This document shows, in pieces, positions 3,285-13,985 of a stretch of 18,259 bases of DNA. Numbering within the stretch: position 1 is the stretch's first letter; every line of letters begins with the position of its first letter. The DNA is taken from assembly GCA_964645535.1 (NCBI GenBank), contig CAZYCQ010000024.1, positions 1 through 18,259 of the forward strand, given 5' to 3'. The translations under genes and the position numbers were made by a program. The notes below the pieces were generated by a model. That model was not told where the DNA came from. It searched no databases and saw only the letters and a program-made list of their open reading frames with translations. Source of the DNA: an uncultured archaeon (GTDB lineage: Archaea; Asgardarchaeota; Heimdallarchaeia; Heimdallarchaeales; Kariarchaeaceae).

Positions 3285-3387
3285 ACGCGCAACTAACAAA
3301 ATACAAAAAAACTTCGAACCCGATTGGAATTTGTTGTTTCGACAACAACATCCAACAACCACCCCAAAAATGGGATAATTTCCGAAA

Positions 3388-3462
3388 GAGCCATTAGCTC
3401 AGCTTGGTTAGAGCGCACGGCTGATAACCGTGAGGTCGCCAGTTCGAATCTGGCATGGCTCA
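3388..3462 (+). tRNA. tRNA-Ile(GAT): tRNA-Ile (anticodon GAT), intronless, CCA not encoded
   Basis: Cloverleaf: acceptor GAGCCAT/ATGGCTC, D-stem GCTC/GAGC, anticodon stem CACGG/CCGTG with loop CTGATAA (GAT at 3423-3425), T-arm GCCAG-TTCGAAT-CTGGC, discriminator A. Confidence 0.98.
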
Positions 3463-3466
3463 TTTT
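3413..3466 (+). repeat. att-like direct repeat, copy 1 (3' part of tRNA-Ile)
   Basis: 54 bp identical to 6081-6134. Confidence 0.95.
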
Positions 3467-3474
3467 ATTTTTTT
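3463..3474 (+). terminator. Oligo-T tract after the tRNA (archaeal-type terminator)
   Basis: TTTTATTTTTTT directly follows the discriminator base. Confidence 0.5.
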
Positions 3475-3965
3475 CACCATGTTGTATTTGTTTTGGACTT
3501 TTTTTGTATTTTTTTGGAAATTTTCCAATTTGACTTTTCTTTCGGGATATTTTTCCTTGGAATTATTTTGTGAGAAGGTGGGCATGAATGGGGTGGTTTT
3601 GAGATCATGTTGTTGTTCTGTTCTATTTGTTTGTCATTTTTTTTGGTTTAGCAAATCAGGTTAGGAGTTGTGGTTCATGATGGCTACAAATTGTCAATTG
3701 TATTATTGCGTAGGGTATTGGAATTTTCTTTTTTAGTCAACCTAATGGTTTTCCATATCTTTAGAGCGTATGGTCAATACAAGTGATTTTGGTAGTTCGA
3801 TCCCATTTTGGGAGGTTCATCATTGGAAAATGTGTCAGGCATTGGAAAGGAGGATTGCACTTGGTCGATTGGAGTTTCATTTTTTTCAGCAGAGATTTGT
3901 TATATAGGGATGGGTTATCGGAGTAAGTCATGGGGAGTTATTCCGCAACCAGATGGTGTAGGCTT

Positions 3966-4544
3966 TCAGAGGTGATGTTTTATCTGGTTCATGAACTGGT
4001 CAAAGGAAACATTGTTTTTTCTGGCTTCTTGAATTTTGTAATGTTCGATGATTTCGGAGTAGAAAGCAATGTCGGGTTCTTTATGGCAGAGGTTATAGAA
4101 ATCTTGCTTTGAGAGGTTATCCGTAGTGAGACCTTTGCTTTTTTTGAATTTGAGTTTTTTTCTGGCGTTCATATCCAAACCTGCAAGGTACCAGCTTTCA
4201 ATTTCTATGACAGCAAATGCAATGGATTTTTGTATTTGATTTGGCTTGATGCCCATTTCTTTTGAGAATTGGTCGATCCGTTGTTTTTTTGTGTTTTTAT
4301 TCCATCCCCCATAGTTGTTGGCATCTGAATCGATGAGGACGATAAGGTCGATAAAACCCTTTCTTTTTGAATTGAGGGCACTTTTGATTTTTTGCGGAGC
4401 AGTTTTTCCCGATTTAGAGTTGGGTTTGAGTGGGATGACCGTTGTTTTGGTTTTTATTTCGGGAAGAATAATTTTTTCCATGAAGAGTTGATCAATGATA
4501 CCTTCGACATAGATTAGGAGTTGAATTCCAATCTCCCCCTTCAA
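3966..4544 (-). CDS. TOPRIM-like protein (DUF4276/DUF4435-like), putative nuclease effector
   Basis: LIYVEGIID (TOPRIM Glu motif), IVLIDSD (DxD), EIESWYL. The TTG start overlaps the ATPase stop (TTGA at 4541-4544). Confidence 0.7.
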   Translation of the reverse strand: MKGEIGIQLLIYVEGIIDQLFMEKIILPEIKTKTTVIPLKPNSKSGKTAPQKIKSALNSKRKGFIDLIVLIDSDANNYGGWNKNTKKQRIDQFSKEMGIKPNQIQKSIAFAVIEIESWYLAGLDMNARKKLKFKKSKGLTTDNLSKQDFYNLCHKEPDIAFYSEIIEHYKIQEARKNNVSFDQFMNQIKHHL

Positions 4545-5710
4545 AGTGTATTGTCAACCATCAGATCTGCAAGAGTAAAACCATCCTCGATAAATTGAAC
4601 AACCATTCGGTTGTTTGTGGGATGATGGACAGTTGTACTTCCACTTTCGTCCCTATCAACCAAGATCACATTTTCTGGAAAAGTGTTTTCAATAAGTTCG
4701 GGACTATGGGTAGTGATCAGGAACTGCTTATTTTCTTGTTCCTCATAGAGTATTGCCGTGATTTTTTTGAGGACTGAGGGATGGACAAAACGTTCGGGTT
4801 CTTCCAAAATAATGATGGAGGCATTTTGAAATTTGATGGCAACAATAATTCCAATGATGTTTAATGTTCCTTCAGAGAGAGCTGGTGCCGTCACAAAATA
4901 TTCCTTGCTGTATTTTTCCTTAACTGTGAGGATGTGAGAAGATCCGAGAATGTTTTGGGTGCCGATGTCTGTTATGTAACCCAAGACATAATTAAGATAA
5001 TGGAGAAACTTTTTCTTTTTTTTGTCATCATTCAGTATTGAGCGGATCACACTGGCCAAGTTAGATCCATCTTCCTCCAAAACAGTTGTGTGTTCAATAG
5101 GGGTGGCTTCCTTCATCCATTGGATGTTGAAATCAAAGATGGCGATATTTTCAATGGCCTGTCTAAATACAAGGAGCGTAGGGTCAAATGGAACTTGAAG
5201 AAAGGAAATATTTTTGGGAAGTTCCATGCCACGAATTTCCTTGTTTTGGTAACTGACTTTTCCTTGGCTATTACGATTGAACTCAAATTCTTTTTTTTTC
5301 GAGGAAGGATCAAAAAGTCGAAGCCTTTCCTTTGTTATCCTAACCTCTTTTTTGGTTTTGAGTGTTTGAAAATTGAGTTCATAATGGAATTCCATGCTCT
5401 TTTTTGGCATTCCCTTGATTGGGTAATTTGGGTTGAATGTTCCAAAAAGGGAGATGGAGGTCTTCTTTTTGTTCAAGAGAATATTTTGTATTCCTAAAGT
5501 TCCGCCATGTTGCATCACAGCAGGTTGGATTCCATCTTGGATTACGTCTTTCAAGAATCTAAAAATATCAACAAGATTTGATTTCCCACTTGCATTTCGA
5601 CCAATGAAAACGTTGATGTTATTCAAGTCCAAATGAAGTTCATCAATGCTTTTGTAATTAGATACTCTGATTGATTCTAGCACGAATGAACTAGGAGCAT
5701 TAATGCTCAT
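4541..5710 (-). CDS. ABC-class ATPase (AAA_15/AAA_21, COG4637/OLD-like)
   Basis: VSNYKSI, Walker A GRNASGKSN, EDGSNLA, signature LSEGT, Walker B IIILEEPE..HP, H-loop LITTHSP. Confidence 0.92.
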   Translation of the reverse strand: MSINAPSSFVLESIRVSNYKSIDELHLDLNNINVFIGRNASGKSNLVDIFRFLKDVIQDGIQPAVMQHGGTLGIQNILLNKKKTSISLFGTFNPNYPIKGMPKKSMEFHYELNFQTLKTKKEVRITKERLRLFDPSSKKKEFEFNRNSQGKVSYQNKEIRGMELPKNISFLQVPFDPTLLVFRQAIENIAIFDFNIQWMKEATPIEHTTVLEEDGSNLASVIRSILNDDKKKKKFLHYLNYVLGYITDIGTQNILGSSHILTVKEKYSKEYFVTAPALSEGTLNIIGIIVAIKFQNASIIILEEPERFVHPSVLKKITAILYEEQENKQFLITTHSPELIENTFPENVILVDRDESGSTTVHHPTNNRMVVQFIEDGFTLADLMVDNTL

Positions 5711-6080
5711 GGGTATTGGTTTATTTAGTTGTTTAAATACTTTAAGTCCCGTAATTCAAATAAATAACCACCATGAGCCGATTATATTGAGTGTCAGAAA
5801 TTCATTTTGAATGATTTTAGAGGGAAAAGTGTATCAATGGATTGAAAGGCCAATTTATCGAAAGTGGAAATCACGAAAGAAAATCATAAGGTTGTCGGTT
5901 TTCCTAATGTCTAAGTGGATGGAATTTATGATGAAAATCCGTATCCTATCCTCGATAGCAGGTTCTGTCAATCCAGAATTGTCGCTTCAACAGACCTTAT
6001 GTAGTGAGAAGCCGTTGAAATTTAAGTTTGACTGACAAAAAATCATGTTGGGGTTTACCAAGATCAAACGTTATCCTAAT

Positions 6081-6134
6081 GCGCACGGCTGATAACCGTG
6101 AGGTCGCCAGTTCGAATCTGGCATGGCTCATTTT
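6081..6134 (+). repeat. att-like direct repeat, copy 2 (tRNA-Ile 3' fragment lacking the 5' acceptor strand and D-loop)
   Basis: GCGCACGGCTGATAACCGTGAGGTCGCCAGTTCGAATCTGGCATGGCTCATTTT, identical to 3413-3466. Confidence 0.95.
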
Positions 6135-6559
6135 TCTGCACACGGTACGTTTTTTTGCGAAAACGCATTTTTCGGAAATTTTCCAACATTAGGTCATAGA
6201 CTTTTCAACCTTTTTTTGGGGAATTTTCGATTGAATAAGTGACATATCCCATGGAATTTTCCGGGTTGATTTGCATTTTGACTTCAGAGGTCTGTGCGAG
6301 GTTTGGCATTGTCAATTATAAGGACATGGGATTGAGGCCCTTGATCATCAAATGCTTGCCGTGGATCAACCAAATGTAAAAGGAGCAGGTCCAGACCGGC
6401 TGTCCGGTCTATTGCTAATTCTCGGGGATTTGTTGTGGAGAAAGAATGATTTTTCAAATGGTTCTTCTAAGTTCATATTTACGGCAGGAGTCAGGTCTCT
6501 TCTTCCTTTCATTATTCAGTTGAAAAAAAAATTTAACCGACAACGTTCCAGTTACATTT

Positions 6560-6814
6560 ATGAATGAAGGGAATCGTGAGATGAGGTCATCTGAGGGAAT
6601 TATTGATTTGCTCCGAAGGTTTACGCCAGGAGTTCGGGTTGAGGTGGCAAAGATTGCGGAGTTACTTGAAAGGGATCAGAAATGTGTTGTTGCTCATCTG
6701 GAGGAGATGCAGGAGTCCAAGATACTTCCTGAAACGTATTTGGAAGAGGTATTCATCCGGTCAGAAAGATCTTATCAATCAGGGGATGAACATGGCCATG
6801 CTTGCAGAGTATAG
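6560..6814 (+). CDS. Winged-helix-like ORF, probably the out-of-frame N-terminus of the LRR gene
   Basis: IIDLLRRFTPGVRVEVAKIAELLE...VVAHLEEM...EEVFIR has a wHTH/PCI-like pattern; it overlaps the LRR frame. Confidence 0.45.
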   Translation: MNEGNREMRSSEGIIDLLRRFTPGVRVEVAKIAELLERDQKCVVAHLEEMQESKILPETYLEEVFIRSERSYQSGDEHGHACRV

Positions 6815-7568
6815 AGGAGTGTCACTGGTTTTGGGAGATGCCGAAGTGCTCCTTGAGCTGGAAAAGCAGGTCGGGAGTATCCCTGTTGTTGAAAAGATTG
6901 AATGGAACACATTTGGTTTTGTGGCTGAAGACCATCGAGTGACAGGACTCGGTTTATGTGAAAGAGACCTTACAACCCTTCCAGAATGCATAGGCAAGCT
7001 GAGCAACCTCAAAAGGCTACGTTTGGACAAAAACCAGTTGACCGGACTTCCGAAGACGATCGGGGGTCTGACCAATCTGCAAGTGCTTGATGTGAGTGAC
7101 AACAGACTAAGTGAGCTGCCTGACTTGAGCAAGCAGACCAATCTACAAGAGTTGAATGCATGGAACAATGATCTGAGAGAACTGCCTGACTTGAGCAGCT
7201 TGACTAACCTACAAACGTTGGGTCTGATTGGAAACCAATTGAAAGGACTGCCTGATTTGAGCAAGCTGAGCAACTTGCAGAGGCTGGGTGTGAACAGCAA
7301 CCAGCTCATCCAGCTACCTGATTTGAGCAAGTTGACAAACCTGCAAGGGTTGAGTGTGAGCGACAACAGGTTGACCGAGCTACCTGACTTGAGTAACCTG
7401 AGCAATCTGCAAGGACTGTATGTGAGTGGCAACAGACTGAGTGAGCTGCCCGACTTGGGTGACCTGAGCAATCTGCAAGTGCTGGATGTAAGGGGCAATC
7501 CCCTGACCGAAGGGGCAAGAAGACAATTGAGAGAGCTTCAGGGACGAGGCGTATTGGTAAAATTCTAA
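6786..7568 (+). CDS. Leucine-rich repeat protein with Asgard-type cap
   Basis: Cap YRGVSL..DAEVLLELEKQVG.IP.VEKIEWNTFGFVAED.RVTGLGL, then about 8 LRRs of 22-23 aa (L.ELPDLS.LSNLQ.L.VS.N.). ATG 6786 is in frame with track ORF 6603-7568. Confidence 0.9.
   Translation: MNMAMLAEYRGVSLVLGDAEVLLELEKQVGSIPVVEKIEWNTFGFVAEDHRVTGLGLCERDLTTLPECIGKLSNLKRLRLDKNQLTGLPKTIGGLTNLQVLDVSDNRLSELPDLSKQTNLQELNAWNNDLRELPDLSSLTNLQTLGLIGNQLKGLPDLSKLSNLQRLGVNSNQLIQLPDLSKLTNLQGLSVSDNRLTELPDLSNLSNLQGLYVSGNRLSELPDLGDLSNLQVLDVRGNPLTEGARRQLRELQGRGVLVKF
6969..7506 (+). repeat. Tandem ~66-bp coding repeats (LRR units)
   Basis: For example 7068-7130 and 7398-7460 are highly similar at an offset of 330 = 5 x 66. Confidence 0.85.
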
Positions 7569-11435: not shown

Positions 11436-11473
11436 AAACAAAATTGCCATTCTTGCATTTACGATTGTGACGG

Positions 11474-12463
11474 GTGTGCCGATATGGTTTGGGAATTATC
11501 TTTCAGCGGTTCAGCTTTTCCATCCATTGGAGGAGAGCATCAAGGAGTTCAGTGACAACATACGGGATCAGAATTATCGTGACCGTGGAATGGTTCAGAG
11601 AATTGGGGATCGGGGAGTCGAGGATTGACTTCAATGAGGTAGGCGTTCGATATTCCTCCAGCTTTTACCGATTGCCCCATGGATACGAAGACATTCCGTC
11701 AATCATTATTTCACCGGACATCCCCCATGGAAAGAGATATGGGGTATTTTTCAATGTTGGTGATTCAATTCTTTTGACATTGACTGGTGTTCTCAATGAG
11801 GAAGTTTCGACAAAGGATCCGGAGTTCCGGGAATTTGCACGCGAATTGGAGCATGATTCAATATCCCGAATTCTGGATTACCTTGAGCCGATGAGTGATA
11901 TCTATCATTTCAGTTATCCCCGTACAAGGTGGGTAAGATATGATAAGCTCCATAATTTTCCGAACAGGTTCCTTGTCATTGGTGATGCATTGTGTAGCTT
12001 CAATCCGATCTATGGGCAAGGCATGACTGTGGCGTCATATGAAGCATATGTCTTGAATGAGTTGCTCAAAAAGAATGGGCTTGACAATATCCACAGGAAG
12101 TTCTACAGAAAAGCGAATTCGATTGTCAGTTTGAGTTGGAACCTTTCGTCTTCAGACATGCTGAAATATCCGGAGGCATCGGGCAAGAGGACTTTGGCAA
12201 TTCGTTTCAAGAATTGGTATATGAAGCAGGTCATGTTGGCAAGTGGATCTGAATACATCAACAAGAAATTCCTACGTGTCATGACCTATCTTTCTTCACC
12301 GGCAACCCTTTTCTCACCACTGTTTTTGGTTCGTCTGTTTTTGGCTAGACCTTTCAGGCCCAAGTATGAACCAGATTTTGATTCCATTCAGCGGGTAAGA
12401 GAAAGTCATGAAAATGTAAAGCCCTATCAAGAAACGAGTGAGATCATTACACAGGATCATTGA
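11474..12463 (+). pseudogene. N-terminally truncated FAD-dependent monooxygenase/oxidoreductase
   Basis: C-terminal FAD motif FLVIGDALCSFNPIYGQGMTVA is present. Similarity starts near EWFRELG (~11585). No GxGxxG Rossmann motif or DG motif in this or upstream ORFs. Confidence 0.7.
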
Positions 12464-12593: not shown

Positions 12594-13985
12594 ATGGAGG
12601 AGAAAACGGGAGATTGGGAGCAACAGGTCAATGAGACGTGGAATGGCTACAAAGCCATAAACAGGGGGGATCCAGAAAAGGAGAGATATGCCCGAGAGAA
12701 GCTTTGGCCATTGACATTGGAAGCATTGAAGCATTCATGGGAGCGATTTCCTGACGCAAGGGTTCGGGGGGCGATCTTGACGGTAGGGTTTTCGCCAGAA
12801 CCCATTGCGGGAACCTTGGCAGTGGTAAAACCGGAGTACGCGTGTTTGCTTCATACGGACAAATCTGAGAAGGTTGTCGACAGGGTTATTTCCTTGGCAG
12901 AATATCCCAGAAGCAGGGTTCGACTGTTCAAGGTTTCCAAGGATGACGTCTCGTCCCTCTACAAGAAGTTCAGGGAGGCAGTCGGTTTTTTGGTCACTGA
13001 GTGCAATATCCCGAAGGAGGAGATTGCAGTGGATCCGACAGGTGGGACGAAAACGATGCCGTTTGCAGGAGGTATTGTTGGTTTGAGCTATAATCTGTCA
13101 TTGCTGTATGTCAGCAATGAAAAATATGATCCGGATGAGAGGCGTCCGATTGCAGGCCATGAGTTTTTTGTTTTCAAGCGGAGGCTTTCCAATTCGTATC
13201 CGATACGGGATTATCTCAAGGCAGTGGATTTGGTTCGAAACTTCGCATTTCATAACGCATTGAAGATCTGGGAGACGATGTATGATGATGAAATCGCAAG
13301 CCACAGGTTGCTCTTTTATCTTGCAAGAGGTCTATCGATGTGGGATTCATTCAGATATGATAAGGCCATTGAACATTTCAGGAAAGTCCTGAAGATTTCA
13401 GATCAATTCCAAACCACAAATGGGGAAGAAGCGAACCGGATCATCAATTCGTGGATTGACCATCTATTGCAGGTGAAGCAGCATGAGGGATTGAAGGCGA
13501 TTGATTATTTCTGCCATGCAAACCGGCTTTATGAACAGGGAAATGCGAATGTAGCAATAATCATGTTTTATGTTTCCTTTGAGACATTTGTTGAATGGGT
13601 ATGCCAAGAGCATGGCATTGACAGGTCTGAGTTCACACAGGAAAAATTGGAATTCAAGACGGCAGAGGAACTGCTCCGCAAATTCAAGAGGAGTTTCAAA
13701 GGAGGGAAATTAGGGCTCATTGAAGGATTGGCAGTACTTGCGCACCATTATCCGATTGATCAGAAGCAGATCGGCAGGAGCATGAGGTTTGCAGAGCTTC
13801 GAAATGATGTCGTGCATCGCGGCAAAGCAGCGGATGCAAGCGAGATCGAAAATTCCATTGATTTCCTGAAGGAATTTTTTGGAATGTTCAAGGATAAATT
13901 GGGTGAGGAAGCATTCTGTACGCGTTTGTCATCGAAGAATCTAAAATTGATTGCTGATTGGCTGGAAGAGATATCATGGTATTGA
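12594..13985 (+). CDS. CARF-helical-HEPN protein (TIGR02710/Csm6-Csx1-like putative RNase)
   Basis: CARF motifs ILTVGFSPEP and AVDPTGGTKTM, LLYVSN...RRP..G.E, a TPR-like middle region, and a C-terminal HEPN RxxxxH (RNDVVH) preceded by AIIMFYVSFE. Confidence 0.85.
   Translation: MEEKTGDWEQQVNETWNGYKAINRGDPEKERYAREKLWPLTLEALKHSWERFPDARVRGAILTVGFSPEPIAGTLAVVKPEYACLLHTDKSEKVVDRVISLAEYPRSRVRLFKVSKDDVSSLYKKFREAVGFLVTECNIPKEEIAVDPTGGTKTMPFAGGIVGLSYNLSLLYVSNEKYDPDERRPIAGHEFFVFKRRLSNSYPIRDYLKAVDLVRNFAFHNALKIWETMYDDEIASHRLLFYLARGLSMWDSFRYDKAIEHFRKVLKISDQFQTTNGEEANRIINSWIDHLLQVKQHEGLKAIDYFCHANRLYEQGNANVAIIMFYVSFETFVEWVCQEHGIDRSEFTQEKLEFKTAEELLRKFKRSFKGGKLGLIEGLAVLAHHYPIDQKQIGRSMRFAELRNDVVHRGKAADASEIENSIDFLKEFFGMFKDKLGEEAFCTRLSSKNLKLIADWLEEISWY

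Follow-up and report, generated by a model that had tools for sequence, protein, structure and literature searches.

The stretch analysed here, the window, comprises the first 18,259 nucleotides of the 43-kb contig CAZYCQ010000024.1 (C24) from the draft genome of an uncultured archaeon of the Kariarchaeaceae (assembly GCA_964645535.1; 176 contigs, 3.6 Mb, 89% complete). It contains an islet of 2.7 kb that starts behind an intact tRNA-Ile(GAT) gene, ends with a second copy of the 3' part of that gene and carries two coupled genes, one for an ABC-type ATPase and one for a DUF4276 protein, Table 1. Our preferred explanation, held with moderate confidence, is that of an integrated defence islet without a recombinase of its own, either a remnant or a helper-dependent unit, resembling a cis-mobilizable element (CIME). 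For comparison, we used 12 genomes of the same family and 83 of the same class; these relatives are fragmented metagenome-assembled genomes. In the following, G000 is the source genome, G001, G002 and G003 belong to the same genus, and G011 belongs to another genus of the family.

The two copies of the repeat (attL inside the intact tRNA gene, attR downstream) are identical over 54 nucleotides and in direct orientation, and their start-to-start spacing is 2668 bp. Each copy consists of tRNA positions 26-75 and TTTT, i.e. four nucleotides past the 3' end, and starts just 5' of the anticodon stem. According to our own arithmetic, the chance expectation of an exact 54-mer repeat within 18 kb is ~1e-24. 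The tRNA-Ile(GAT) is the sole tRNA that ARAGORN calls in the window and the sole full copy in the G000 assembly. The attR copy is a non-functional partial tRNA, because its 26 bits in the profile search fall under the Rfam gathering score of 29. A preliminary description of the stretch had reported an exact 54-bp repeat that spans tRNA-Ile from its anticodon arm to its 3' end, and this is confirmed by repeat search, ARAGORN and Rfam. It had also suggested a search for more tRNA-Ile fragments. The whole 3.6-Mb assembly holds two matches to the repeat, namely attL and attR, no further or degraded tRNA-Ile fragments were found elsewhere in it, and among the other 42 predicted tRNAs there is no case of partial duplication.

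An intact tRNA gene followed by an exact 3' fragment is the layout that arises when DNA integrates in the Campbell manner into the 3' part of such a gene, as the preliminary description had recognised. Both the intact tRNA end and the displaced 3' fragment in direct repeat, by which Islander-type islands are defined, are present. The integrase that such islands carry inside is absent from the 2.7-kb islet. The GC content of the islet is 0.36-0.39, versus 0.41 in the genome.

Table 1. Features at the tRNA-Ile locus and in its neighbourhood. Positions refer to the window; the last four rows lie outside the islet and are described as side observations in the text.
Feature	Position	Strand	Evidence or remark
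Related motif GGGATAATTTCC	3372-3383	.	directly upstream of tRNA; conserved in G002
tRNA-Ile(GAT), intact	3388-3462	+	ARAGORN; Rfam RF00005 70.9 bits
attL, left copy of 54-bp direct repeat	3413-3466	+	repeat search, 100% identity
Left non-coding arm, T-rich	3467-3965	.	no open reading frame >69 aa, no family match, no homology to G002
Palindromic motif GGAAATTTTCC	3516-3526	.	left arm, 50 bp after attL; degenerate second copy ~30 bp further
DUF4276 protein, 192 aa, TTG start (HEC-01B/MAD4-like)	3966-4544	-	Pfam PF14103 7e-8; HEC-01B weak, 4e-4
ABC-type ATPase, 389 aa (AAA_21/AAA_15; HEC-01A-like)	4541-5710	-	Pfam AAA_21 5e-27; PADLOC HEC-01A 4.5e-57
Right non-coding arm, presumably the promoter region for both genes	5711-6080	.	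lone 74-aa open reading frame 5811-6035 without family match
attR, right copy of 54-bp repeat, displaced tRNA-Ile 3' fragment	6081-6134	+	repeat search
Second GGAAATTTTCC	6174-6184 (region 6170-6233)	.	40 bp after attR; inverted repeat with 6215-6230
Remnant of large-protein gene, C-terminal ~250 aa	2535-3284	+	upstream of tRNA; in-frame stop 2691-2693
Leucine-rich-repeat protein, directly after attR	6603-7568	+	LRR_4 1.9e-32
Resemblance to residues 120-165 of an MCP gene of G002	11449-11586		43% over 46 aa
CARF-HEPN, Csx1/Csm6 type	12594-13985	+	PADLOC 1.5e-35

The interior of the islet (3467-6080) consists of the two minus-strand genes and the non-coding arms. The stop of the ATPase gene overlaps the start of the DUF4276 gene by 4 nt, and the same overlap is present in G002. 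Profile searches with Pfam, PADLOC and NCBIfam found no Rep or capsid match in the interior, and profile searches bear out the earlier picture of a 2668-bp unit with two coupled genes and no integrase, Rep or capsid gene. The AAA_21 match of the ATPase spans the full profile, its Walker A motif (G-x-N-x-S-G-K-S) is invariant in the homologue alignment, and its sequence neighbours in the PDB are GajA, PtuA, the retron ATPases and OLD. A search of genomes of bacteria and archaea with the ATPase alignment yielded 80 loci. In 75 of them, the gene directly downstream of the ATPase codes for a DUF4276 homologue, which argues that the two genes form a conserved module.

The preliminary description called the two genes an ATPase + TOPRIM pair. 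Databases annotate the second gene as DUF4276 and not as TOPRIM, but the name stands after checks of motifs, fold and literature. In an alignment of 17 partner proteins E14, G15, D18, D72 and E116 are invariant and E114 nearly so; D72 sits in the D-S-D of the protein in the window. The AlphaFold (AF2) model of this protein has a mean pLDDT of 79.5. Foldseek found no match to the model in the PDB at E<=0.001. With VIA-align, the top match is an uncharacterised Pyrococcus protein (Z 8.4), and among TOPRIM regions the Z-scores are 7.7 for BpOLD (B. pseudomallei, 163 residues aligned), 7.1 for TsOLD (T. scotoductus), 6.5 for GajA and 5.9 for AriB. A 2025 paper independently places the DUF4276 domain in the Toprim superfamily and names MAD4 as homologous (PMC12065111). 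The conserved E/DxD motifs, the predicted fold and this paper mark the partner as a predicted TOPRIM-fold nuclease, and because of them we describe the cargo as an OLD/PARIS/MAD3-MAD4-like two-gene ATPase-nuclease module. To judge from MAD3-MAD4, OLD, Gabija and PARIS, the ATPase and the DUF4276 protein would probably act together as a complex and cleave nucleic acid upon the sensing of a virus, and it is from these systems that we infer an antiviral role of the pair.

Two narrower assignments of the pair were rejected. PARIS does not apply: DUF4276, and not DUF4435, is the one family that the partner matches, and the match to the AriA model (2e-28) is weaker than that to HEC-01A. Neither is the ATPase a MAD3 equivalog, as it reaches 139.7 bits with the NCBIfam model NF047739, for which the cut-off is 420, and the islet has two genes only.

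Within the genus, G000 and G002 have the pair, and it was not found in G001 and G003. Outside the genus, the best homologues have 42% and then ~30% identity and come from many phyla. Because the pair is patchy in the genus and its next homologues, at 42% or less, belong to other phyla, we conclude that it was acquired horizontally. A homologue with 78% identity (P0002) lies on a contig of 2325 bp, and another (P0004) on a contig of 11 kb. No closer relatives were found in metagenome contigs by a pattern scan, and against virus and plasmid collections the locus gave tRNA matches alone. The host is an Asgard archaeon: G000 has three Orc1/Cdc6 genes, a true actin (455 bits) and two ESCRT-III/Snf7 genes, and no DnaA was found in it.

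The pair is rarely close to a tRNA. A tRNA gene lies within 8 kb in only six of the 80 loci, and the idea that the pair is intrinsically tRNA-linked was rejected. With no tRNA within that distance in the other 74 loci, the pair is therefore ordinary cargo and not the dedicated tRNA-att cassette that the preliminary description had in mind.

No recombinase gene accompanies the islet. A six-frame search with PF00589 and PF00239 found neither a tyrosine nor a serine recombinase, be it in the islet or elsewhere on contig C24, and PHROGs, Pfam and PADLOC gave nothing integrase-like for the unannotated open reading frames (ORFs) of the right flank. Archaeal SSV-type integrases split their own gene upon integration. 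A test for a split integrase is relevant in an archaeal host, because such a partition would make an element look integrase-less. When 5711-6134 was joined in silico to 3467-3965, the longest ORF across the att site had 77 aa and was antisense to the tRNA, and a split SSV-type integrase was rejected.

A tyrosine recombinase in the genome, for which the preliminary description had proposed to search, does exist, but neither of the two that we found is an island integrase. One is Xer-like and lies beside cheA (C87), the other is a 504-aa protein (C78, L004:1075-2589, +). The latter, at 504-624 aa, is kept in all 12 family genomes together with an upstream neighbour of 234 aa (orthologues L066-L070, L078), and the G000 and G002 proteins share 86% amino-acid identity. 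It is unlinked to tRNA-Ile, lying on a different contig in G000 and on C4, versus C8 for the tRNA, in the 10-contig assembly of G003. By its distribution this appears to be a core gene rather than an island integrase. Its length and its conservation are unusual for an integrase. On the tRNA-Ile contigs, no integrase was found among the 12 family or the 83 class genomes, in assemblies that are fragmented and, for G002, break at the repeat. The preliminary description suggested that the islet could be moved in trans. For such movement, there is no candidate mobile-element integrase in the assembly or on the tRNA-Ile contigs of the family.

The tRNA-Ile site of relatives carries comparable structures, with different cargo between the fragments, as the preliminary description had thought worth looking for. 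In G002, a full tRNA-Ile lies near a contig end, and on another contig a 1287-aa gene separates a 51-nt 3' fragment from the pair, which comes last. The identity of tRNA and fragment continues for 49 bp past the tRNA (96 nt at 98%), with homology up to ~110 bp. No continuation of the broken contigs, which end at this repeat, was found. A degraded tRNA-Ile fragment to the right of the pair in G002 was searched for, and the score of 30 is not significant against a null of 21.7 +/- 3. The 1287-aa gene has no match to a recombinase or defence family; a full copy of ~3.5 kb lies upstream of tRNA-Ile (L026, C127), and the one within the islet is a second copy (74.6% nucleotide identity). In G011, three tRNA-Ile fragments of 58, 58 and 36 nt lie in tandem and delimit two islets (2.9 and 1.2 kb). 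The genes of these islets have no integrase or defence family match, and fragments 2 and 3 have 16 nt downstream in common. Extra tRNA-Ile copies occur in three of the seven class genomes with the same tRNA sequence. The left boundaries of the fragments vary, at tRNA positions 22, 26, 29 and 44. Since the fragments in G002 and G011 bound integrase-less islets with related sequence after each copy, they point to repeated accretion at one tRNA-Ile site in the family.

The motifs in the arms of the islet were examined at the genome level. The 11-mer GGAAATTTTCC has six exact copies in the G000 genome, and two of these are the ones after attL and attR. The inverted repeat after attR has a fold z-score of -3.46. 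A general tRNA-flank signal was rejected for this 11-mer, as there is none near other tRNAs of G000. The sequences of the islet arms are not repeated elsewhere in the genome. On contig C19 (positions 23581 and 23743), two TTGGA(A/T)AATTTCCAA palindromes lie 160 bp apart, one of which has 24 nt (96%) in common with the left arm of the islet; they may form another site for the same presumed binding factor.

Related arms follow each att copy, and for this reason we consider that related elements accreted in tandem, in which case the DNA right of attR would be older stacked cargo. The region from 6135 to ~16900 has almost no counterpart in the relatives of the genus, which, together with the CARF-HEPN gene located there, fits older stacked cargo.

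According to the explanation that we prefer, a circular DNA with the 3' part of tRNA-Ile would have recombined with the chromosomal tRNA-Ile(GAT). The agent would most likely have been a tyrosine integrase with a crossover in or near the anticodon loop. Integrases of this kind, in the account of Williams from 2002, reportedly give identity blocks that start as this one does, at tRNA position 26. Integration would have regenerated the intact tRNA at attL and displaced the original 3' part as the 54-bp attR. The islet would then be what is left of a larger element after loss of the integrase module, or else a minimal unit flanked by att sites and able to move only with a helper. It is non-autonomous because it has no recombinase of its own, and is presumably immobile at present. 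In the family, the tRNA-Ile site would have taken up such units repeatedly, which would give tandem stacks with a related arm after each att. The preliminary description preferred a mobile cassette over a decayed provirus, a preference that we do not share, as a decayed integrated element is at least as likely.

The age of the insertion can be judged from a single base of the T-loop. G000 has TTCGAAT in both the tRNA and the fragment, and G002 has TTCAAAT in both. TTCAAAT is also found in the tRNA-Ile of G001, G004, G006, G007 and G011, the family genomes whose sequences were read. The intergenic DNA of the G000 and G002 islets is unalignable. A neutral ancestral fragment should not mirror a lineage-specific base, and because of this we favour either an insertion in each lineage after their divergence or gene conversion between the repeats. 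The recent or still-active recombination proposed in the preliminary description is therefore upheld as far as recent homogenisation is concerned; gene conversion accounts for it equally well.

Several observations weigh against the explanation that we prefer. The pair has 76.6% nucleotide identity between G000 and G002, close to the 78.6% of a neighbouring core gene, and this near-core divergence hints at an old shared insertion. An old insertion is in turn awkward to combine with a perfect neutral 54-bp fragment, barring gene conversion or re-insertion. Relative to the M19 peptidase gene, the block of large gene, tRNA or fragment and pair is inverted between G000 and G002. A clean empty site was not found: the tRNA-Ile loci of G001, G003 and G006 have no synteny to G000, with housekeeping genes after the tRNA-Ile in G003 and G006, and those of G011 and G006 have none to each other. 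The reason is that synteny at tRNA-Ile has been lost even within the genus. The larger integrase-bearing element of which, in the terms of the preliminary description, the islet might be a deletion remnant was not found either; as none of the 83 class genomes has an integrase-bearing relative of the islet at tRNA-Ile, it is the layout that carries the integrase-made origin. An integrase could lie in the unassembled part of the genome, which is 89% complete. Finally, HEC-01 did not protect E. coli against phages in published assays (bioRxiv 10.1101/2024.01.29.577857), and for this reason a defence role of the pair is only putative.

A possible but unlikely alternative is that the islet is still mobile, excising as a 2668-bp circle and re-integrating at tRNA-Ile by a recombinase acting in trans or in cis. 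The recombinase would come from an unassembled or transient element, or would be the ~504-aa tyrosine recombinase. Much of what was described above is consistent with this: the repeat is perfect (54/54), G002 and G011 have stacks of small units without integrase at this site, each att copy has a conserved motif behind it, and a tyrosine recombinase is conserved throughout the 12 family genomes. It behaves, however, as a core gene unlinked to tRNA-Ile. The T-loop base common to tRNA and fragment (G in G000, A in G002), despite the unalignable intergenic DNA, also suits a mobile islet, but it is accounted for just as well if the two 54-bp repeats, at a distance of 2.6 kb, underwent gene conversion. 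Among Asgard archaea, a precedent is mini-Yucahu-i of Atabeyarchaeia, an integrase-less sub-element of 2644 bp that was seen as a circle (PMC11529989). For the islet itself, no second copy was observed, its arms occur once in the genome, and the other tRNAs of G000 bear no integration scars.

It is improbable, in our view, that the repeat was made without any site-specific recombinase. In this case host homologous recombination would have taken in circular or linear DNA that carried a tRNA-Ile 3' segment and flank, or the tRNA 3' part and its downstream flank would have been duplicated as a segment and later filled with cargo. The duplicated block of G002, which extends ~110 bp into the flank, and the motif pair common to the flanks after both G000 copies would agree with this, but shared arms are also expected for related tandem-stacked elements. 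The varying left boundaries of the fragments (22, 26, 29, 44) point in the same direction, but variable identity blocks are normal among elements that use one tRNA. The failure to find an integrase anywhere likewise speaks for an origin without recombinase. However, all fragments reach the 3' end of the tRNA, on its 3' side and in direct orientation, and this is the hallmark of att-type copies.

A more speculative proposal, to which we give little credence, is that the family runs a cassette-capture platform at tRNA-Ile, driven in trans by the host recombinase of ~504-624 aa. Its units would be integrase-less, each starting with the palindromic arm motif after a tRNA-Ile 3' copy, and would be inserted, stacked and exchanged, so that the platform would be a functional analogue of the integron with a tRNA end as recombination site. 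If it were true that a host recombinase moves stacked units at tRNA-Ile, this would amount to a new way for archaea to capture genes. Least probable of all is an assembly artefact, in which strain variants or populations were joined at the conserved tRNA to give a false duplication: this is a 176-contig draft, 89% complete, and tRNA sequences are conserved, but each repeat copy is surrounded by unique sequence on a single contig of 43 kb, independent assemblies of two other species show the same architecture, and the pair of G002 is likewise near a tRNA-Ile fragment.

Some further features were observed around tRNA-Ile in G000 and in its relatives. The gene remnant upstream of the tRNA in the window has 66% amino-acid identity to the C-terminus of the 1287-aa protein of G002 (L025:6544-10407, -), which has no family match, and paralogues of this gene are located on contigs C11, C42, C2 and C6 of G000. 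The leucine-rich-repeat protein after attR is built of 66-nt DNA repeats. No cas genes were seen in the window beside the CARF-HEPN gene. The MCP gene that is resembled by positions 11449-11586 follows the pair in G002, and the similarity may be a relic of a common ancestry of the two right flanks. In G003, the tRNA-Ile(GAT) (L028:6940-7028, C8) is 89 nt long, with an insert of ~12-14 nt beside the anticodon that is probably an archaeal tRNA intron; G000 and G002 are without the insert. In G001, a PbeA-type PLD-helicase defence gene (C303, L029:7174-8862; PADLOC 1.3e-126) lies ~1.1 kb upstream of tRNA-Ile, and with this gene we count defence genes near tRNA-Ile in several relatives.

CIMEs and their tandem accretion are said to have been described by Pavlovic et al. 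in 2004 and Bellanger et al. in 2011 for ICESt1-type elements of Streptococcus thermophilus. The islet resembles them in being att-flanked and without recombination or transfer genes, in its accessory (defence) cargo and in the tandem stacks at one site. These stacks are seen as three fragments in G011, as a tRNA and a fragment with homologous arms in G002 and as a shared motif in G000. The islet differs in its archaeal host, and no related autonomous element was found at the same att in the fragmented assemblies of the relatives.

Integrase-less and tandem integrated elements are described at archaeal tRNA genes (review PMC8371274, citing She et al. 2001 'Gene capture in archaeal chromosomes'). 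The islet shares with them the chromosomal att repeats of ~40-60 bp from the tRNA 3' end, the loss of the integrase and the stacking at one locus. It is, in contrast, very small (2.7 kb, two genes), and its host is an Asgard archaeon and not a member of the Sulfolobales, Thermococcales or haloarchaea. Unlike an SSV-type class I element, it has no int(N) or int(C) remnants. In Heimdallarchaeum, CRISPR-Cas operons and aloposons are integrated at tRNA genes (PMC8813620). With these and with mini-Yucahu-i, the islet has in common an Asgard host, defence cargo at tRNA genes and a unit of ~2.6 kb without its own integrase. There is no sequence relationship, and mini-Yucahu-i lies within an integrase-bearing plasmid-like element at an 11-bp motif, not at a tRNA. 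Its circle was seen, whereas the G000 islet is known from assembled sequence alone.

The comparison with an integron cassette, made in the preliminary description, fails because the defining features, an attC-like site and an adjacent intI, are absent. The repeat of the islet is a tRNA 3' part, the region of the fragment has no stable fold (z -0.54), and no intI neighbour is present on the 43-kb contig, the two recombinases of the genome being on C87 and C78.

For the cargo, the closest systems are HEC-01, a candidate system that pairs an ABC ATPase with a TOPRIM protein (bioRxiv 10.1101/2024.01.29.577857), and MAD3-MAD4, a 2:2 ATPase-nuclease complex with ATPase and DNA-cleaving activity (PMC13662399). 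Like these, the islet pair has an ABC ATPase with a separate TOPRIM partner, a coupled two-gene operon and the conserved metal-binding E and DxD, and the partner belongs to the DUF4276 family as do HEC-01B and MAD4. The identity to other members is ~30%. In contrast to the eight-gene MADS, no methyltransferase or other MADS genes are nearby, and the MAD3 score is below the cut-off.

The islet places an ATPase-TOPRIM module of the HEC-01/MAD3-MAD4 type in an Asgard lineage and is a small, clean case of defence-gene traffic via a tRNA site in a group whose mobile elements are little known. With no integrase, a small size and tandem stacks, it is not a new type of mobile cassette but fits the known integrase-less integrated elements and CIME-like islets.

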